Part shown: piece by piece, positions 15,964 through 37,814 of the stretch
How positions within the stretch are numbered: the stretch's first letter is position 1
Layout: every line of letters begins with the position of its first letter
NCBI GenBank assembly: GCA_037444405.1
Contig: JBBIML010000006.1
Span: 177,438-241,437, forward strand
DNA: 64,000 nucleotides
Source: Armatimonadota bacterium
GTDB lineage: Bacteria > Armatimonadota > Fimbriimonadia > Fimbriimonadales > GBS-DC
Direction of reading: 5' to 3'
Notes under the pieces: generated by a model
Told to the model about the DNA's origin: nothing
The model's database searches: none
Seen by the model: only the letters and a program-made list of their open reading frames with translations
Made by a program: the position numbers and the translations under genes

Positions 15964-16731
15964 TCAGATGGCAGGTCCGCCCATCCCTTTGGGACCGCCA
16001 CCTCCACCGCCCGTAGCTGGGGGTGGCGGAGCGCCCATCCCACCAGGTGAAGGACCACCGCCTGCCATCCCTGCCTGTTGACCTCCGCCCACACCGATGA
16101 AGCCCGGACCGCTGAGCGGAATGCCCGCCGCGACGGCAATCGCCATCACCTTGTTGGTTCTGGTATCGAGCAGAAATGCAACCCCCAGCTTGTTGTATCG
16201 TGCCAGGATTACATCGCCCTGATACTGATGCTCCTGTGGATAGCCATAGGCACGCACCACTTTGCTGTAGGGGTCGCCCAGCGTGATACCGCGTGCCGTG
16301 CGAACATTCGGGTCAGGCTTATAGCCGTGCGCACTGATCTGCACCACGCGCCCATCTTTGTTCACGACAAACGCATAGGTGCTACCACCTTTGCCCTTGT
16401 AGATGTAGGTGGTCTCCATCTCGACGCGCTGCTCGCCCGGCGTCCCACCTGTGCCAGGCGGCTGACCGAAGCCGGGCGGCCCGCCAGGACCGGGCATCTC
16501 GCCACCTGGGCCCGTTTGTTGTTGCTGCTGTTGATCAAACCGTTGCACAGTTATCGGGACATAGGTAATCTGGCGCGGATTGCCAAACTTCTGCAGCACA
16601 CGCACCGCAGGGCTAAACAGCCGAATGCCTAACAGCTCCACCTCCGTGCGCTGTTTGCTCTGGGCGGTCAGACCCAGCAGCAAAGCGATGGCGCCAGTCG
16701 CCACAACCGCATATTTCCAGACGCTCTTCAT
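15964..16731 (-). CDS. Secreted hypothetical protein with Q-run and Gly/Pro-rich low-complexity segments.
   Basis: Signal peptide MKSVWKYAVVATGAIALLLGL. SD ggagg upstream. There is an internal QQQQQQTGPGG... tract and a G/P-rich C-terminus. Confidence 0.6.
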   Translation of the reverse strand: MKSVWKYAVVATGAIALLLGLTAQSKQRTEVELLGIRLFSPAVRVLQKFGNPRQITYVPITVQRFDQQQQQQTGPGGEMPGPGGPPGFGQPPGTGGTPGEQRVEMETTYIYKGKGGSTYAFVVNKDGRVVQISAHGYKPDPNVRTARGITLGDPYSKVVRAYGYPQEHQYQGDVILARYNKLGVAFLLDTRTNKVMAIAVAAGIPLSGPGFIGVGGGQQAGMAGGGPSPGGMGAPPPPATGGGGGGPKGMGGPAI

Positions 16732-17685: not shown

Positions 17686-19731
17686 ATGAGTGCGTTCGTT
17701 CCGCTGACAGGGGTGCAACTACCGCACACCTGCCGCCGTCGCAAGACGCGCGAGGTCCGGGTGGGCGATATCGGGATTGGGGGGAACAATCCCGTCCGTG
17801 TGCAGACAATGATCACCGCCGAGACGATGAACACGCTCGCCGCCGTCGAGCAGATTATCCAGCTCTACGAGGCGGGCGCGGAAATCGTGCGCGTCACCGC
17901 GCCTAACCTGCGCGAGGCACAAAACCTCGGCGAAATCAAAGCCGAACTGCGACGGCGCGGCTACGGACATATCCCGCTCGTCGCCGATGTGCATCACCAG
18001 GGCATGGAAATCGCCCTCGAATGCACCAGACATGTGGAAAAGATTCGCATCAATCCGGGGCTGTTCGTGTTCCGCAAGCCTGACCCCAGCCGCGTGGAAT
18101 ACAGCCAGAGCGAGATTCAGCAGGAGCTAGAAGCCATCGAGCAGGCGCTCCTGCCTGTGATCCGCGCCTGCAAGGAGCGCGGCGTCGCCATGCGCATCGG
18201 CGTCAATCACGGCAGCCTCTCGGAGCGCATCAAGGTGATGTACGGCGACTCGCCCGTCGGAATGGTCGAATCGGCATTAGAGTATATTCGCATCTGCGAG
18301 GCGCACGGCTTCAAAGATATCGTCATCTCGCTCAAGGCAAGTCGCGTGCCCGTGATGCTCTCGGCAAACCGCCTGATGGTGGAGCGCATGAACCAGCTGG
18401 GCATGGACTATCCCCTGCATCTGGGCGTGACAGAGGCGGGCGACGGGATGTATGCCCGTATCAAGAGCGCAATCGGCATCGGCACCCTGCTGGCGGAAGG
18501 CATCGGCGACACCATTCGCGTCTCGCTCGCCGAAGACCCGCTGAACGAGATCGAGGTGTGCTACGACATCCTGCAGGCGCTGGGACTGCGCAAGACCAAA
18601 GTGGAATATATCGCCTGCCCCTCCTGCGGACGCACCAAGTTTGACCTGCCAACCGTGCTGAACCAGGTGCGCGAAGCCACCAAACATCTGGTGGGACTGG
18701 ACATCGCCGTGATGGGCTGCCTGCCATCCGACCAGCCCGTGATGACCGAGTCGGGGCTGAAACCCATTCATCGGATTCAGGTGGGCGAGCGCGTGCTAAC
18801 CGAGCAGGGCACGCTGGAGCCTGTATCCGCCATCGAGAGCCATTCATTCGAGGGCGAGCTGATAGAGATTGTGCCGCGCGGCGCACCGCCCCTGCGCCTG
18901 ACGCCCAATCACCCCGTGCTGGCGCTCACCCGCTCCTGCACAATTAAAGGCGACCGACCACGCTGGCAAAACATGGCAGACCTCATCAATCGCTGGCAGG
19001 AAGCACGCTGGTACCCGGCGCAGGAGATTACCCGCAATCATGTATTGCTCTACCCTGTGCTGAAAGAGAACCAGATATCGGAGCGCGTTCCTGACGAACC
19101 AAAGCAGATTATCGAATACCTGCAGAAGCTCTGGCGGTGTGATGGCTATTGTGGGGTGGTCCGAGGCTATCCGTGTGCCAGCTATGTGACGGTTTCGCCA
19201 GCGCTCGCCTTTGTCGTTCACCAGTTGCTTCTGCGGCTGGGGATACCAGCGTCGCTGACGGTCAGGCAACCTGCAAACCGCCAGCGTACATACATCATCA
19301 GTGTCACCAGCGGCGATGGGCTGCGGCGATTCGCCGACCGCCTTGGCTTCAAGGTGGAAGTGCCTGAAAGCCGTCAGCGTACGGGGCAGCTCGCGCTCGA
19401 TTCACGCTACCTCTATCTGCCCGTTGCAGCAGTGAGGCGCCTTCCCTATCGGGGCACGGTTCACAATCTGGAGGTGGCGCACGCGCACACCTATGTCGGC
19501 TCACTCTGCGTGGTGCATAACTGCATCGTGAACGGACCAGGCGAGATGGCGGATGCAGATTATGGCTATGTGGGGCGCGGGTCGGGTAAAATCGCGCTCT
19601 ATCGCAAAGGGCAGCTCGTTAAAAACGATATTCCTGCCGAACGCGGCGTGGAAGAGCTGATCGCGCTGCTCAAAGCCGATGGCGTGTGGCGCGATCCGCC
19701 AGCAACCAATCACAACGATGGAGGTCAATAA
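17686..19731 (+). CDS. ispG: 4-hydroxy-3-methylbut-2-enyl diphosphate synthase (IspG/GcpE) interrupted by an in-frame intein.
   Basis: The exteins carry IspG motifs: [27 protein letters not shown], and VMG followed (after the intein) by CIVNGPGE. Extein length without the insert is 413 aa. Confidence 0.9.
18718..19521 (+). other. Intein (268 aa) within ispG, with a probably degenerate LAGLIDADG-type endonuclease core.
   Basis: It starts with Cys in a block-A-like [13 protein letters not shown]. Block B is TPNHP, and blocks F/G are [21 protein letters not shown], followed by a +1 Cys. It interrupts the otherwise contiguous [11 protein letters not shown] motif. Confidence 0.8.
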
Positions 19732-19733
19732 CG

Positions 19734-20186
19734 ATGGGTCTGTTAGGGTTTCAATCGAAGCGGTTGCCGCGCACCAATCTGCGCGATCTGCGGGCGCGAC
19801 TGACAAAACAGAAGGGCAAGGTCGTCCTGCTGAACTTCTGGGCGACATGGTGCCAGCCCTGCGTGGAGGAGTTCCCCGCGCTGGTCAGGCTCTACAACAA
19901 CTATCGCAAGCGGGGTGTGGTGGTGATCGCCGTCTCGGTGGATGACCCCGAAACCGCCGATGAGGTCGTTCAGCCGTTTCTGAAGCGAATGCGCGCGACC
20001 TTCCCCGTGCTGGTGCTGGATCAGGATTCCGACCAGTTCATTCGCGGCTTCGATAACGAATGGGGCGGTGAGGTGCCGCGCACCTACCTCTATAGCAAGT
20101 CGGGCAAGCGCCTGAAGGCGTGGTCGGGTTCGCGCACCTACGCCGAGTTCGAGAAAGAGATCAAGGAGGCGCTGAAACAGCGGTGA
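19734..20186 (+). CDS. Thioredoxin-fold thiol-disulfide oxidoreductase (TlpA/ResA-like).
   Basis: VVLLNFWATWCQPCVEEFPAL carries a WCxxC active site. The ATG at 19734, just after the ispG stop, is preferred to the track start at 19686. Confidence 0.8.
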   Translation: MGLLGFQSKRLPRTNLRDLRARLTKQKGKVVLLNFWATWCQPCVEEFPALVRLYNNYRKRGVVVIAVSVDDPETADEVVQPFLKRMRATFPVLVLDQDSDQFIRGFDNEWGGEVPRTYLYSKSGKRLKAWSGSRTYAEFEKEIKEALKQR

Positions 20187-20194
20187 GCGAACGG

Positions 20195-21040
20195 ATGCGC
20201 CGACTGCGCTTCTGGAAAGTGGAGGCGGTCGGCAACGACTTTGTGCTGGTGGATGCCGATTCTGTTCAGGGCGAGAACCTGCCTGCGCTGGCTCAGCGGC
20301 TGTGCCATCGTCCGCTGGGCATCGGCGGCGACGGCTTGCTGATTATCGGCAGGGGCGAGCGCGAAGCGCTTGCCATGCGGATGTTCAACCCCGACGGCAC
20401 AGAAGACTTCTGCGGCAACGGACTGCGCTGTGTCGCCCGATTCGCCTATGAGCATGGCTATGTGGACACGCCCCGGTTCGCCATCGAGACCATCAGCGGC
20501 GTCGTGCCCGTGCGCCTGAACCTGCGCGACGGTGTGGTGGAGTCGATCACGACCGAGCTGCCGCCGCCGCGCTTTCACCCGCGCGACATCCCGATACGGG
20601 TTGAGGGCGAGCAGGTGCTGGACTACCCGTTAACCGTGAGCGGGCGCGAGGTTCGATTGTGGGCGGTCAACACGGGCACCACGCACAGCGTCATCTTCAC
20701 CGACCGCCTGCCCGACGACGAGCTGTTTGAGCAGATCAGTCCGCGCATCGAGACCCATCCACTGTTTCCGGAGCGTACCAGTGTGCTATGGGCATTGATG
20801 GAGTCACCGAACCGATTCGCTGTGCGCATCTGGGAGCGCGGGGTGGGCGAAACCCAGGGCTGCGGTAGCGGCGCGGCGGCGGTCGCCGTGCTGGCGCACT
20901 TGGCTAACTGGGCAAAAAACCCGGTGGAGGTGCGCTCGCGCGGCGGCGTGCTGACCGTCGAGTGGGAGCCTGGCACTCCCATCCGGCTGACGGGTCCCGC
21001 AACCCTGCGCTTTGAAGGTCTCTACAATCTCTCTGCCTGA
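20195..21040 (+). CDS. dapF: Diaminopimelate epimerase.
   Basis: FWKVEAVGNDFVLVD, NPDGTEDFCGNGLRC and GETQGCGSGAAA contain the two catalytic Cys motifs. An internal ATG is preferred to the track start at 20120. Confidence 0.85.
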   Translation: MRRLRFWKVEAVGNDFVLVDADSVQGENLPALAQRLCHRPLGIGGDGLLIIGRGEREALAMRMFNPDGTEDFCGNGLRCVARFAYEHGYVDTPRFAIETISGVVPVRLNLRDGVVESITTELPPPRFHPRDIPIRVEGEQVLDYPLTVSGREVRLWAVNTGTTHSVIFTDRLPDDELFEQISPRIETHPLFPERTSVLWALMESPNRFAVRIWERGVGETQGCGSGAAAVAVLAHLANWAKNPVEVRSRGGVLTVEWEPGTPIRLTGPATLRFEGLYNLSA

Positions 21041-30063: not shown

Positions 30064-30119
30064 TGCAATCCATGCCGGGGTGAGGCGCTTCCCCGCCTCG
30101 CCCCTCACGAGGAACAGCT

Positions 30120-30668
30120 ATGTGGACGACGCTCACGAACCTGATGGCTGCCGAGACACACGGCGGTGGCGGCATCCTGGAGCAGCTCGGAATCGATTTC
30201 AATCTCATCATTATTCAGGCGGTCGGGTTCCTGCTGCTGCTGTGGCTGCTGACGCGCTTCTTCTGGAAGCCAATTGAGCAGATGCTGGAGGCGCGTCGGC
30301 AGGACATCAACGCCACCTACGACAAGATCGAAGCTGACCGCCGCGCGATGGAGCAGCTGCGGGCGGAATATGAGCAGCGACTGGCGCAGATCGAAGCCGA
30401 AGCCCGCGAACGAATCCAGCAGGCGGTTGGTGAAGCCCAGCAGCTGCGCGACCAGATTCTGCAGGACGCCCGCCGTCAGGCGCAGGAGATTATCGCCCGT
30501 GCGCAGGAGCAAGCGAGCCTCGAACGCGAGAAACTGCTCACCGAGCTGCAGACCCATGTCGCCGACCTGACGCTCGCCGTCGCGGAGCGCATTCTGGGCG
30601 AAAGCCTCGACGACGAGCGCCATCGCCGACTGATCAACGAGTTCATCCAGACGGTGGAGGTGCGCTGA
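30120..30668 (+). CDS. atpF: F0F1 ATP synthase subunit b.
   Basis: Single N-terminal TM followed by a long charged helix, located between atpE and atpH. Confidence 0.85.
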   Translation: MWTTLTNLMAAETHGGGGILEQLGIDFNLIIIQAVGFLLLLWLLTRFFWKPIEQMLEARRQDINATYDKIEADRRAMEQLRAEYEQRLAQIEAEARERIQQAVGEAQQLRDQILQDARRQAQEIIARAQEQASLEREKLLTELQTHVADLTLAVAERILGESLDDERHRRLINEFIQTVEVR

Positions 30669-31238
30669 ATGCGAGCCGACTGGCGTGTGGCACGACGCTA
30701 CGCGGGCGCGCTGTTCAAAGCCGCGCTGAACGCGAACACGCTTCAGCGCGTGGGCGAGGACCTGGAGCGCCTGCGCACCCTCCTGCAGGCGAGCGAGGCG
30801 CTGCAGGCGTTCCTCTATAGCCCGCAAATCCCCCGTGACCGCAAAAAGCAGCGCCTGAACGAACTGCTGTCCCGCGACCTGCAACCGCTGACCATGAACC
30901 TGCTCGCGCTGGTCATCGAAAAGCGGCGCGAGAAGCAACTGAACGCCATCATAGAGGAGTTCCAGCGGCTGCGCGAGGCGCACGAGGGCATCGCCCGCGC
31001 CACCATCACCTCCGCCATCCCCCTCAGCCACAGCCAGCAACAGGCGCTCCTGCAACGACTGGAGAACAGCACGGGCAAGCGAATCATCCCCACTTTTGAA
31101 GTTGACCCCAGCCAGATTGGCGGGGTTCGAGTGCAGATTGGCGATTATCAGATTGACGGCACGATTCGGGGCGCGCTCGAACGGCTGCACGACCATGTGC
31201 GCCTCGAAATCGCTCGCCGCAGCCGAATCACCGGATGA
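30669..31238 (+). CDS. atpH: F0F1 ATP synthase subunit delta (OSCP).
   Basis: VARRYAGALF start, OSCP-like length, and position upstream of atpA. Confidence 0.85.
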   Translation: MRADWRVARRYAGALFKAALNANTLQRVGEDLERLRTLLQASEALQAFLYSPQIPRDRKKQRLNELLSRDLQPLTMNLLALVIEKRREKQLNAIIEEFQRLREAHEGIARATITSAIPLSHSQQQALLQRLENSTGKRIIPTFEVDPSQIGGVRVQIGDYQIDGTIRGALERLHDHVRLEIARRSRITG

Positions 31239-31247
31239 GGTGCAACC

Positions 31248-32786
31248 ATGGCAATCCGACCTGAAGAAATAACGAGCATTCTGGCAAAAGAGATCGAATC
31301 GCTGGATCAGAAGCCTGTCGCGGAGAGCGTCGGCACGGTGCTGCAGGTGGGCGACGGCATCGCCCGCGTGTACGGGCTGCCCGACGCCCAGATGGGCGAG
31401 CTGCTGGAGTTCCCGCACGAGGTGATGGGGCTGGTGCTGAACCTTGAAGAGGACAGCATCGGCTGCATCATTCTCGGCTCGGACGAGGAACTCAAAGAGG
31501 GCGACCCGGTGCGCCGCACAGGGCGCATCGCGGAGGTGCCCGTCGGCAAAGCGCTGCTGGGGCGCGTGGTCGACGCGCTCGGACGACCGCTCGACGGCAA
31601 GGGACCCATCGTCGCCGAAGAGTATCGCCGCGTGGAAGTGATTGCGCCCGGCGTGGTCAAGCGCCAGCCCGTCAAGGAGCCGCTGCAAACGGGCATCAAA
31701 GCCATCGACTCCATGATTCCCATCGGGCGCGGTCAGCGCGAGCTGATTATCGGCGACCGCTCCACCGGCAAAACTGCCATCGTGCTGGACACCATCATCA
31801 ATCAGAAATATACGCACGAGACCGATTCGCCCGTCTACTGCATCTATGTGGCGATTGGTCAGAAGATGGCGGCGATTGCCCGCTTCATCGACACGCTGGA
31901 GCGGTACGGCGCGATGGAGTACACCACGGTCGTGGTAGCGTCCGCCAGCGACCCGAACAGTCTGCAGTACCTGGCGCCCTACGCGGGCTGCGCGATGGGC
32001 GAATACTTCCGCGATAACGGCATGCACGCGCTGGTGGTGTACGACGACCTGTCCAAGCATGCGCAGGCGTATCGCGCGGTTTCGCTGCTGCTGCGCCGTC
32101 CGCCAGGGCGCGAGGCATATCCGGGCGATGTGTTCTATCTGCACTCGCGCCTGCTGGAGCGCGCGGCGAAGCTCTCGGACGAGCTCGGCGGCGGCTCGCT
32201 GACCGCACTGCCCATCATCGAGACGCAGGCGGGCGATGTGTCCGCCTATATCCCGACCAATGTCATCTCCATCACCGATGGGCAGATCTATCTGGAGCCG
32301 AGCCTGTTCTACGCGGGTATTCGCCCCGCGATCAATGTGGGCATCTCGGTCAGCCGTGTGGGGGGCGACGCCCAGATTCGCGCGATGAAGCAGGTGGCGG
32401 GACGCCTGCGACTGGACATGGCGCAGTTCCGCGAGGTGCAGGCGTTCGCCCAGTTCGCCTCCGACCTCGACCGCGCCACCCAGATGCAGCTCGCGCGCGG
32501 ATTGCGCCTGCAGGAGATTCTCAAACAGCCCCAGTTCCAGCCGATGCCCGTCGAGGAGCAGGTGATGATTATCTTCGCGGGCACGCAGGGCTACCTCGAC
32601 GACATCCCGGTGGAGCTGGTGCGCGCGTTTGAGGACGGCTTCCATCCCTTCATGCGCGAAAAGTATCCCGACATCGGCGAAAAGATTCGGCGCGAGAAGC
32701 AGTTAGACGCCGATACGGAAGCCGACCTGCGCCGCGCGATTGAGGAATATAAGGCGCTCTTCAAGCAGGAGCAGGGGCTGACATGA
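31248..32786 (+). CDS. atpA: F0F1 ATP synthase subunit alpha.
   Basis: GDRSTGKT Walker A, and high overall similarity to AtpA ([18 protein letters not shown]). Confidence 0.95.
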
Positions 32787-34643: not shown

Positions 34644-37600
34644 TTGATGGTGGCGGAGGCGGTGGCGCACTATCTGGAGCGTCTGCAGGCGATTCAGGGG
34701 CAGGCGCAGGCGACGGGTGAGCTGTCCTATCATCACGCCCTGCATGAACTGCTCATCACACTCGCCCAGCCGCAGGGCGCCACCCTCCTGCATGAGCCAC
34801 GCAAAACAGTCGTGGGCAGACCCGACTTCATTCTGCTCCGCAACGGGATGCCCATCGGCTATCTGGAGGCGGAGGCGTTCGGCGCCGACCTGGACGCCCT
34901 GCAGGGGCACGCGCACCAGCAAACCCGCGCGTTTATCCAGAATTTAGACAACTTTGTGCTGACCAACTTTCTGGAGTTTCGGCTCTATCGGGACGGCGAG
35001 CTGCAGGCGCGAGCAATGCTTCCCGCCCCGCCCGCGCGCGAGACGGTGCGCCTGTTCCCCGACGCGGTGCAGGCTCTGAAAAGCCTGCTGGAGGCTTTTC
35101 TGCAGGGCGAGCCACCCGCGATTGCCGACCCCCAGACGCTGGCGCACTATCTGGCGCGGCGCACCCGCCAGCTCACCGCCGCGCTCGAAACCCTGCTCGC
35201 GCAGAAAGCGGAGACCGACCTGCATAGCCTCTACCGCGCCTTTGAGCGCACGCTCTTGCCCGACCTGAAGCCCGAAGAGTTCGCCGACCTCTACGCACAG
35301 ACGGTTGCCTACGGGCTGTTCGCGGCGCGATGCGCTCAGGCGGATGGCAACGCCTTCAGCCGTCAGTCCGCTGCCATGCTCATCCCGCCCACCAACCCCT
35401 TCCTGCGCCGACTGTTCCAGCTGCTTGCCGCGCATGACCTGCCGCCCACCATCGCCTGGATTGCCGACGAGATTGCCACCCTGCTCGCCCGCGCCGATAT
35501 GCTCGCGATTCTGGAAAACTTCGGGCAACGCACGGGCAAAGAAGACCCCATCGTGCATTTCTATGAGGACTTCCTTGCTATCTATGACCCCGAACAGCGC
35601 GAGATTCGGGGCGTCTACTACACGCCCGAACCTGTCGTGCAGTTCATCGTGCGAGCTGTCGACGATGCGCTGCGCCTGTTCTTCGGCAAATCGCATGGGC
35701 TGGCTGATGACGAAACGCTGATTTTAGACCCCGCCTGCGGCACGGGCAGCTTCCTGTATGAGGTGGTTCAGCAGGTGCATCGGCGCGTGGTGGGGCGATT
35801 CGGTGGAGGCATCTGGCGCGATTACGCCCGCGAGAGGTTAATCCACCGCCTGTTCGGCTTCGAGCTGCTGATGGCGCCCTACGCGATTGCCCACCTGAAG
35901 CTGGGACTACAACTGCAACAGCTCGGTGTGCCGCTCAACAGCCAGCGGCTGGGCATTTATCTCACCAACACGCTGGAGCAGGCGGTCAAGCAGAGCGAGC
36001 TGCTGTTCGGCGAGTTCATCACCCGCGAAGCCAACGCCGCAGTCGCCATCAAGCGCGAGAAGCCCATCCTGGTGGTGCTGGGCAACCCGCCCTACAGCGG
36101 GCACTCCGCCAATCGGAGCTACCATGAATATGAGGAGCGCGACGAGCAGGGACGAATCCGCAAGCGACGCGAACCCACATGGATTGGCAAACTGATAGAA
36201 GACTACAAGCAGATCAACGGTCAGTTGCTGGGGGAGCGGAACCCCAAATGGCTGCAGGATGACTATGTGAAGTTTATTCGCTTCGCCGAGTGGCGCATTC
36301 AGCAGACGGGCGAGGGCATCGTCGCGCTAATTACCAACCACGCCTATCTGGACAACCCCACCTTCCGCGCGATGCGCCATCATCTCCTGCAGAGCTTCCA
36401 GCGGCTCTATATCGTGAACCTGCACGGGAACGCGCGGCGCAAGGAGCGCGCGCCCGACGGCTCGCCCGACGAAAATGTGTTCGACATCCAGCAGGGCGTC
36501 GCGATTCTGATAGCGATTCGGCGGGCGGATGCGGAGCCGGGCGTTTTTTATGTGGATGTGTGGGGGCGGCGCGCGGAGAAGTACGCCTTTTTGCAGGAGC
36601 AGACGCTGGAGCGCGCCGCGTGGACGCGCCTGGAGCCGTCCGAGCCACTCTATCTGTTCGTGCCGCAGGACACCGCGCTCAAAGCCGAATATCAGCAGGG
36701 CTGGCGCATCCCTGATATTTTCCCCGTGCATAGCGTGGGGATTGTAACGGCGCGCGATAAGCTCACCATCCACCGCACGCGCGAAGCCGTGTGGCAAACG
36801 GTGTGCGAGTTCGTGAAGTACGAGGCGGAGCAGGCGCGGTATCTCTTCAAGCTGGGCAAAGATGCGCGCGACTGGTCAGTGGCGCGCGCTCAACAGGACC
36901 TGCGCGATGCAGGGGTTCCCAACGAAAGCGCGAAGGCGCATATCATCCCCATCCTCTATCGCCCCTTCGATGTGCGGTACACCTTCTATACGGGACGGGA
37001 TTGCGGCTTTCACTGCAGACCCCGCTACAAAGTCATGAAAGAACTGCTTGCAGGTGATAATCTGGTGTTGATCACTGTGCGCCAGCAGTCGCGAATGCAG
37101 GACCCCTGGGCGAACGCATTCGTTGCTCAAACGCTTGTGGAGAGCTGTGCGCTTTCAAACTACACGCGCGAAATTGGCTATGTATTTCCCCTCTATATCA
37201 CCCACACGAATAATCACAGGAACAACAATCATAAAAACAACAGGGATCAGAACGCGCTGGATGGGCTGGAGGGGCGCGAGCCGAACCTGAATCGGGAGTT
37301 CTGGAACGCGCTGGCGCAGCGCATCGGCGAGAAGCCCACGCCTGAGGCAATTCTGGGCTATATCTATGCGGTTCTCAACAGCCCCACCTATCGCGCCCGC
37401 TACGCTGAGTTCCTGCGCCGCGACTTCCCGCGCGTGTCCCTGCCCCGCGATAAAGAGCAGTTCGAACAGCTTGCCCATCTGGGACAGCAGCTGATTGACC
37501 TCCACACCCTGCGCCGTCCAGGACATCACGAAGTGAGCTGCCGATACCCTGTGGAAGGCGATAATCGCGTTCAGAAAGTGCGCTATGATGAGGTGAATCA

Positions 37601-37814
37601 GCGACTCTACATCAACGCGGAGCAGTTTTTCGCGCCTGTGCCGCCTGAGGTGTGGGCGTTCCGCGTGGGTGGTTATGCCGTGTGTGAGAAGTGGCTGACC
37701 GAACGGCGCGGGCAGAAGCTCTCGCTGGACGAACGCCTCGACTTCCTGCGCATCATCACGGCGATTGCAGAAACCCTGCGCCTGCAGGCGGAGATCGACT
37801 CGTGGCTGGAGTAG
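34644..37814 (+). CDS. Large stand-alone N6-adenine DNA methyltransferase with a type-ISP/IIG-like C-terminal specificity region.
   Basis: SAM motif LILDPACGTGSF and catalytic motif LGNPPYSG. The C-terminal GGY.V.EKWL..R.G..L pattern is typical of type ISP/IIG target-recognition ends. No helicase or recognisable nuclease partner lies nearby. Confidence 0.8.
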   Translation: MMVAEAVAHYLERLQAIQGQAQATGELSYHHALHELLITLAQPQGATLLHEPRKTVVGRPDFILLRNGMPIGYLEAEAFGADLDALQGHAHQQTRAFIQNLDNFVLTNFLEFRLYRDGELQARAMLPAPPARETVRLFPDAVQALKSLLEAFLQGEPPAIADPQTLAHYLARRTRQLTAALETLLAQKAETDLHSLYRAFERTLLPDLKPEEFADLYAQTVAYGLFAARCAQADGNAFSRQSAAMLIPPTNPFLRRLFQLLAAHDLPPTIAWIADEIATLLARADMLAILENFGQRTGKEDPIVHFYEDFLAIYDPEQREIRGVYYTPEPVVQFIVRAVDDALRLFFGKSHGLADDETLILDPACGTGSFLYEVVQQVHRRVVGRFGGGIWRDYARERLIHRLFGFELLMAPYAIAHLKLGLQLQQLGVPLNSQRLGIYLTNTLEQAVKQSELLFGEFITREANAAVAIKREKPILVVLGNPPYSGHSANRSYHEYEERDEQGRIRKRREPTWIGKLIEDYKQINGQLLGERNPKWLQDDYVKFIRFAEWRIQQTGEGIVALITNHAYLDNPTFRAMRHHLLQSFQRLYIVNLHGNARRKERAPDGSPDENVFDIQQGVAILIAIRRADAEPGVFYVDVWGRRAEKYAFLQEQTLERAAWTRLEPSEPLYLFVPQDTALKAEYQQGWRIPDIFPVHSVGIVTARDKLTIHRTREAVWQTVCEFVKYEAEQARYLFKLGKDARDWSVARAQQDLRDAGVPNESAKAHIIPILYRPFDVRYTFYTGRDCGFHCRPRYKVMKELLAGDNLVLITVRQQSRMQDPWANAFVAQTLVESCALSNYTREIGYVFPLYITHTNNHRNNNHKNNRDQNALDGLEGREPNLNREFWNALAQRIGEKPTPEAILGYIYAVLNSPTYRARYAEFLRRDFPRVSLPRDKEQFEQLAHLGQQLIDLHTLRRPGHHEVSCRYPVEGDNRVQKVRYDEVNQRLYINAEQFFAPVPPEVWAFRVGGYAVCEKWLTERRGQKLSLDERLDFLRIITAIAETLRLQAEIDSWLE

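Follow-up and report, generated by a model that had tools for sequence, protein, structure and literature searches.

What is the 268-amino-acid insert that interrupts IspG (GcpE), an essential methylerythritol phosphate (MEP) pathway enzyme, in an Armatimonadota bacterium? The question is raised by a stretch of 64,000 nucleotides (the window; assembly GCA_037444405.1, contig JBBIML010000006.1), in which the open reading frame (ORF) at 17686-19731 of the forward strand encodes 681 amino acids of IspG with the insert in frame. A first-pass annotation, made from the letters alone, took the insert for an intein placed directly before the third cysteine ligand of the [4Fe-4S] cluster of the enzyme. 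We conclude with high confidence that positions 18718-19521 encode a canonical class 1 intein, which has lost half of its endonuclease, is inherited vertically and is kept for clean splicing.

The Pfam model GcpE matched the 681-amino-acid product (E-value 3e-119) in two stretches that flank the insert, and the matches of TIGR00612 (446 bits against a cutoff of 280) and NF001540 (400 bits against 345) were split in the same way, all three stopping at residue 346 and restarting past residue 612. As these equivalog hidden Markov models score above their cutoffs and the CxxC...GCxVNGPGE ligand motifs are present, the enzyme is an IspG of the short bacterial type. From the GcpE and TIGR00612 matches and an alignment with A. 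aeolicus IspG (Protein Data Bank (PDB) 3NOY), the N-extein (amino acids 1-344; 17686-18717; this and all features of the gene lie on the forward strand) comprises the triosephosphate isomerase (TIM)-barrel A domain and the start of the iron-sulphur (Fe-S) B domain, and ends in ...LDIAVMG. The C-extein, delimited by the ORF and by the same alignment, occupies 19522-19731 (69 amino acids and a stop codon). Translation of the 804 nucleotides in between gives exactly what had been described, an insert of 268 residues that begins with Cys, contains TPNHP and ends in VVHN followed by Cys. The calculated masses are 75.6 kDa for the precursor, 45.3 kDa for spliced IspG and 30.4 kDa for the intein. The GC content of third codon positions is lower in the intein (0.71) than in the N-extein (0.80), with overall GC contents of 0.61 and 0.62, respectively; the contrast is weak, since the short C-extein, at 0.59, lies below the intein.

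Excision of the 268 residues in silico yields a protein of 413 amino acids, which aligns end to end with 3NOY (E-value 1.6e-70) with all four ligand positions matched. The junction of the spliced product falls opposite the 3NOY stretch ...AVMGCVVNAIGE, and ...IAVMG/CIVNGPGE (the slash marks the junction here and below) sits opposite ...VAVMGCVVNAIGE. The first residue after the insert, Cys+1, aligns with chain residue 309 of 3NOY, and the Glu seven residues further on with chain residue 316; these we take to be Cys300 and Glu307 of A. aeolicus IspG, given an offset of nine residues. The sequence CPSCGR (18616-18633), which contains Cys311 and Cys314, aligns with ACPTCGR of 3NOY. In IspG the [4Fe-4S] cluster is held by three Cys and one Glu, the ligands being C270, C273, C305 and E312 in the E. 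coli enzyme and including Glu350 in that of T. thermophilus (PMC11218510), and the spacing of the published ligands, C-x2-C...C-x6-E, is the same in the window. The comparison thus supports the first-pass assignments: CPSCGR would provide the first two ligands, the Cys of CIVNGPGE (19522-19545) would be both the splice nucleophile and the equivalent of the third ligand, and the Glu of this motif would be the fourth.

The insert has the anatomy of an intein. In an alignment of the 45 inteins that we delimited at ispG loci, Cys1, Thr62, His65, Asn268 and Cys+1 never vary, and at least 90% of the sequences keep His267. Block A (18718-18756) starts with the nucleophile Cys1 and has invariant Thr10 and Gly13; block B (18901-18912) is TPNH, a TxxH motif, within TPNHP at intein residues 62-66; and blocks F and G (19459-19521), in which Val248 and Asn250 are likewise invariant, end with the penultimate His and Asn268. 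The C-terminal His-Asn is replaced by Lys-Asn in L031 and by Arg-Asn in P0014. A basic loop of the Hint domain after block B (18931-19005), modelled with low confidence (predicted local distance difference test (pLDDT) scores of 58-60 for residues 71-90) and shortened in the mini-intein described below, may be a DNA-recognition extension.

The fold agrees with this anatomy. A profile of the 45 homologues matched solved inteins in the PDB, namely PI-PkoII (E-value 6.5e-11) and V-ATPase inteins (7.5e-9 and 4.8e-8), as well as the KlbA, RadA and TFIIB inteins. The AlphaFold model of the intein (pLDDT 89.1; predicted template modelling score 0.88) retrieved TliVMA, PI-SceI and PI-PfuI at the top ranks of a Foldseek search (E-values 5e-11 to 3e-8); mini-inteins and Hedgehog Hint domains ranked next. 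All 31 matches at E-values up to 1e-3 were inteins or Hedgehog Hint domains; the weaker matches beyond these included bacterial intein-like (BIL) domains, and no fold other than Hint was seen among the matches. The best profile and fold matches (PI-PkoII, 2CW7; TliVMA, 7QSU and 7QSS; PI-SceI, 1VDE and 1LWS; PI-PfuI, 1DQ3) resemble the window intein in having a Hint domain with an inserted LAGLIDADG endonuclease, and share with it the block A Cys, the TxxH of block B and the HN of block G followed by Cys. They differ in having two LAGLIDADG motifs, where the window intein has a single half-domain, and in residing in polymerases and ATPases instead of a metabolic Fe-S enzyme; sequence identity to them is 9-16%.

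The insert is a mobile insertion, as empty sites show. The closest extein relatives are intein-free proteins of 404-417 amino acids; those 87-94% identical to the window IspG (P0019-P0028) lack the insert at the exact junction, which is the outcome that the intein assignment had called for, and P0019 (407 amino acids, 94% identical) reads across it as VMG/CIVNGPGE, the contiguous motif predicted for the spliced product. An empty allele was also found in metagenome run X2, one of the runs of the source type labelled 'subsurface metagenome'. Here a contig of 10,270 nucleotides, at a depth of 22, joins window position 18716 to 19521 and skips 18717-19520, exactly 804 nucleotides, with about 8% mismatches in the flanks; it comes from a related organism of the same community in which the site is unoccupied. 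A second intein-free contig of X2, at a depth of 15, connects 18686 with 19521 and carries 30 substituted letters, and the intein-bearing pieces of this run, over window positions 18300-19900, are shallower than both (depth 4-13).

Scanning GTDB at one genome per species gave 54 loci, in 46 of which the complete element could be delimited, every time at MG/C of IspG. These 46 species-level genomes belong to Armatimonadota, Rokubacteria/Methylomirabilota and, in one case, Chloroflexota; within Rokubacteria/Methylomirabilota the site is occupied in about 30 species and empty in at least about 40. In a tree of the exteins, intein-bearing and intein-free alleles are interleaved. Exteins are 98.5% identical between L002, with a 268-amino-acid intein, and the intein-free P0026, and equally so between L005, with a 369-amino-acid intein, and the intein-free P0027 (on a contig of 2.99 Mb). 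The window and L009 share 94% identity in the extein and 55% in the intein; because inteins are so much more diverged than their exteins, several intein lineages must be in circulation.

Three loci of the scan need separate mention. L013, a Chloroflexota metagenome-assembled genome (MAG; KLAP209), has the only complete IspG intein outside Armatimonadota and Rokubacteria, and its extein and intein both group with Armatimonas-type sequences, which reflects either horizontal transfer or a binning error. The apparent 264-amino-acid intein of L040 is an artefact of a masked run of N. In the Rokubacteria contig L053 (5602-7312) an intein junction is followed by an intein that goes out of frame part-way and then by a second N-extein end joined to CEVNGPGE; we considered a second insertion site and rejected it, as the same contig holds intein-bearing and intein-free junctions and is most likely an assembly chimera of the alleles of one population. 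No further intein was found in the ten window ORFs that were scanned (the neighbours of ispG and the largest ORFs).

The endonuclease had been described as a degenerate LAGLIDADG domain, which can be made more precise: exactly one half-domain is missing. Most copies in the family are 368-376 amino acids long (396 in L031) and contain two LAGLIDADG motifs, FLT.AACY.AEGS and LW.CDGY.G. The 268-amino-acid form occurs in three genomes, those of the window, of L001 (Armatimonadota MAG PFS170222_bin_173; 98% identical) and of L002 ('Armatimonadetes bacterium DC'; 84% identical). By alignment and length, all three lack the same segment of about 101 amino acids, which begins shortly ahead of the first motif, includes its helix and stops shortly ahead of the second; the deletion junction of the window intein, ...ERVPDEPK/QIIEY..., lies at 19078-19104. 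Only the second motif (LWRCDGYCG) is left, where a monomeric endonuclease would have two. The remainder (19102-19347) scores above the Pfam cutoff for LAGLIDADG_3 (1e-10), keeps the acidic residue of the motif, Asp142, which at least 90% of the family share, and is modelled with pLDDT above 90 as alpha-beta-beta-alpha-beta-beta-alpha (helices 128-142, 161-173 and 199-209; strands 143-148, 151-158, 179-183 and 191-196), so that the remnant is predicted to be one complete half-domain. In-frame loss of the other half-domain suggests that the endonuclease is most likely dead and that the intein is now inherited vertically.

In the homing cycle of Goddard and Burt, natural mini-inteins and inteins with degenerate endonucleases are intermediates. 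The IspG family displays all stages of this cycle at one site: empty, full-length, half-deleted and, in the Rokubacteria MAG AR7 (L051, 6022-6450), a mini-intein of 142 amino acids that lacks the endonuclease and part of the basic loop. The window form differs from the intermediates of scattered decay in that a clean loss of one half-domain was followed by conservation (dN/dS 0.05, see below). P0041 (507 amino acids; extein 89% identical) has an intein of the full-length type that loses its reading frame immediately ahead of the first LAGLIDADG motif (...LPEYPECACRRGVPDD...), through either a sequencing error or decay of this copy.

To quantify this conservation, the ratio of non-synonymous to synonymous substitution (dN/dS) was calculated pairwise by the Nei-Gojobori method between the window and L002. 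It was 0.092 for the N-extein, 0.083 for the whole intein and 0.053 both for the C-extein and for the linker with the endonuclease remnant (intein residues 111-225); these ratios are rough, with dS of 0.75-1.7 across the regions (about 0.75-1.3 for the whole intein and the two exteins) placing synonymous sites near saturation, which weakens the case made from them, yet none comes close to 1. Purifying selection thus acts on the truncated intein. It follows from the low ratios that the intein is not decaying and that the C-extein downstream of it is functional, which argues for splicing. The low ratio of the remnant may reflect selection for a foldable insert that is harmless to splicing or, less likely, a residual function.

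The conserved motifs and the low dN/dS of the exteins suggest that the intein splices itself, presumably by the class 1 route. The 75.6-kDa precursor would be translated; Cys1 would form a thioester with Gly-1, which would be attacked by Cys+1; Asn268 would then cyclize, and an S-to-N acyl shift would leave the 45.3-kDa IspG with a native junction and the free 30.4-kDa intein. Since Cys+1 is the equivalent of the third ligand and the cluster loop is occupied by the intein, the enzyme would be expected to become competent only after splicing. With the intein attached to a ligand Cys, on the loop that closes over the barrel of the partner subunit, it is reasonable to infer that the precursor lacks the cluster and is inactive. 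The family as a whole would then be a mobile element aimed at one site of ispG in Armatimonadota and Rokubacteria/Methylomirabilota; in the lineage of the window, one half-domain would have been deleted in frame, and, because an essential enzyme has to be spliced cleanly, selection would have maintained the integrity of what remained.

The double role proposed for Cys+1 could also be taken to mean that the intein has been domesticated as a conditional switch. Cys+1 would choose between the splice thioester and the cluster; a disulfide between Cys1 and Cys+1, or binding of metal or cluster by Cys+1, would hold an inactive precursor under oxidizing or iron-poor conditions, reduction would release it, and MEP flux would thereby be tied to the redox state, with retention of the intein amounting to its domestication. 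We consider this unlikely, despite several observations in its favour. Both cysteines are invariant; the host enzyme, though, dictates the residue at +1, and Cys is more common than any other residue as the nucleophile at position 1 of inteins, so the presence of both is no evidence. Strong purifying selection acts across species on an intein whose endonuclease is presumably dead, although such selection is to be expected wherever an intein interrupts an essential gene. In the window, L001, L005, L006 and L008 the gene immediately downstream encodes a redoxin of the thioredoxin fold, but in L002 this neighbour is missing; as this synteny is only local and is absent near the intein-free L055 and L056, we treat it as a coincidence and not as support for redox control. 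Finally, the sporadic distribution (intein-free exteins 98.5% identical to intein-bearing ones, intein-free relatives at equal or higher depth in X2, and the many intein-free Rokubacteria species) argues against an indispensable function of the intein for the host.

Precedents for such control exist in other hosts, and IspG with the MEP pathway is itself discussed as a system that senses oxidative stress (PMC11192765). The P. abyssi MoaA intein (2011; reviewed in PMC10663303) resembles that of IspG in its oxygen-labile host and in having Cys1 near extein cysteines of functional importance, and it serves as the model of redox-conditional splicing. According to the same review, the disulfide trap of MoaA links an N-extein Cys to Cys1, whereas the N-extein of IspG (...IAVMG) has no Cys near the junction, so that only a Cys1-Cys+1 disulfide would be possible. 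A disulfide of catalytic cysteines within this very pair of residues, the one that the first-pass annotation had suggested as a possible redox trap, was described in the precursor of another intein in another host (Chen et al. 2012 JACS, cited in PMC4031507); that it can form there says nothing on its formation in IspG. The M. tuberculosis SufB intein (Topilina et al. 2015 PNAS, cited in PMC4760082) also resides in a host of the Fe-S economy, and its splicing reportedly responds to oxidative and nitrosative stress. SufB, however, is an assembly scaffold, while IspG is an end-user enzyme that has one of its cluster ligands at the +1 position.

A second possibility is that the truncated intein is still mobile, its single half-domain forming homodimers like those of I-CreI and thus an active endonuclease. 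The remnant is indeed a complete and confidently folded half-domain with the Asp of the motif, and it equals the exteins in its low dN/dS (0.05-0.06), which selection for a foldable insert harmless to splicing explains equally well. The extein tree places the window nearer to L009, with a different, full-length intein, and to the intein-free P0019 than to L002, which has the same truncated form; the extein identities concerned are about 2 points apart, within the reach of recombination or tree noise. Against mobility, the target site is palindromic at 5 of 11 positions, a value reached by 76-89% of shuffles, and thus shows no symmetry beyond chance. Residue 153 (19174-19176) is Cys in the window (GYPCASY), where at least 90% of the family, with L001 and L002 among them, have Arg (GYPRA.Y), and the 268-amino-acid form is confined to three genomes. 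These points make continued mobility decidedly doubtful, and we favour vertical inheritance of a splicing intein with a dead endonuclease.

Several results weigh against assigning the insert to the inteins. The window sequence on its own scored below the gathering thresholds of Hint_2 (24.4 against 28.4) and Intein_splicing (22.5 against 35.8), fell under the cutoffs of TIGR01445 and TIGR01443, the models of intein N- and C-termini, and gave no match in a search of the PDB, in which the family profile did find matches. Intein_splicing scores higher for relatives in other hosts (for example, 48 bits for P0153). Moreover, position 4 of block F (F:4) is Asn250 (19465-19467) opposite the Asp of VYDLSV in PI-PkoII, and Asp in the other solved LAGLIDADG inteins as well. 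An Asp at F:4 is typical of inteins, but not universal. Because the Asn is common to all 45 aligned IspG inteins, full-length ones included, it appears to be a trait of the family and not a sign of decay, and as such no ground for excluding that the insert is an intein.

The altered block F and the low scores of single-sequence Hint models would also fit an insertion that no longer splices, in which case this copy of ispG would be a pseudogene or encode a non-functional precursor. This is very improbable: the frame of 681 codons is intact in three diverged genomes, the catalytic residues are all kept, and the C-extein beyond the insert has a dN/dS of 0.05. It is hardly conceivable that the insert is a non-splicing accessory domain, like the A* domain of the long plant and chlamydial type of IspG, or a BIL domain, given that the long-type models NF002534 and NF001912, for all their low E-values, match the exteins only and fall far below cutoff (487 against 886 and 411 against 1045), that the insert lies within the cluster-binding loop and not between the A and B domains, that orthologues 94-98.5% identical lack it (empty-site alleles that contradict this reading), and that BIL domains, present among the weaker Foldseek matches, reside in variable, non-conserved hosts and require no +1 nucleophile or ligated product, while here the most conserved motif of an essential enzyme is interrupted, the HN/C signature is kept and the top fold matches are true inteins.

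The IspG intein is part of a wider family. An initial homology search had returned 16 relatives in C-terminal fragments of IspG and P0017 as the sole non-IspG homologue. P0017 (L057, 1501-2556; E-value 1.6e-4) is a mini-intein in a protein named pyruvate formate-lyase activating enzyme by JGI, with the C-terminal junction VAN/CQNFD and an upstream N-extein that could not be read in frame; its +1 Cys may be the third Cys of the CX3CX2C motif of radical S-adenosylmethionine enzymes. A profile search of 1.84 billion representative proteins then gave 10,965 matches at E-values up to 1e-3, 296 of them up to 1e-30, in many host proteins. Among the 63 best matches inspected, 4 were IspG and about 13 (P0153, P0159, P0150, P0232 and similar ones) had the +1 Cys in other Fe-S contexts: NifU/IscU (HN/CGDVM), the second Cys of a CxxC motif in the beta subunit of 2-oxoacid:ferredoxin oxidoreductase (HN/CGDFGIL), and 4Fe-4S ferredoxin motifs (HN/C..CP). 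Pfam confirmed one example of each of these host types. If the unlikely reading of the IspG intein as a switch held, these relatives would point to a wider class of inteins in which a cluster-ligand Cys acts as the gate. Three long proteins, P0140 (3308 amino acids), P0144 (4920) and P0148 (3003), have 7-8 separate stretches matching the intein profile each, and may be hosts of several inteins.

Within the window, ispG is followed on the same strand by an ORF of the AhpC/TSA-redoxin, thioredoxin-fold type (19686-20186), which starts within the last ispG codons and contains WCQPC and no obvious signal peptide, and then by dapF (20120-21040). The intein-bearing loci L001, L005, L006 and L008 have this order of genes too; L002 and the intein-free L055 and L056 do not. 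Elsewhere, a forward-strand ORF at 34644-37814 encodes 1056 amino acids with an N6 DNA methylase domain and a Type ISP C-terminal specificity domain, no domain being recognized in the first 300 or so; two reverse-strand ORFs, of 845 (30105-32645) and 254 amino acids (15964-16731), had no Pfam match. Scans of the window for tRNA and Rfam families found nothing.

Known intein hosts are mostly replication, repair and ATPase proteins. The first-pass annotation did not count IspG/GcpE among the classic hosts, and a literature search, which did not extend to the supplementary tables of the survey of Novikova et al. 2016, gave no paper on an intein in IspG/GcpE, common as the element is in MAGs; one co-mention of intein and IspG terms, in the M. 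capsulatus genome paper, proved unrelated. Some copies are labelled 'intein/homing endonuclease' by the JGI pipeline, and the sole named NCBI copy is called IspG. The element belongs to a well-understood class, for which both the insertion site and the host are new.

An essential, oxygen-sensitive Fe-S enzyme of the MEP pathway is thus added to the hosts of inteins. Records derived from NCBI give such proteins simply the name IspG or none at all, so that ispG genes of 680-780 amino acids are to be expected in Armatimonadota and Rokubacteria by annotators and in pathway reconstructions. The natural deletion series at a single site is useful for the study of the homing cycle and for the engineering of thermostable mini-inteins. 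The double role proposed for one residue, as +1 nucleophile and as cluster ligand, would make IspG a natural system in which to study whether splicing competes with cofactor insertion, and whether the maturation of an enzyme is under redox control.

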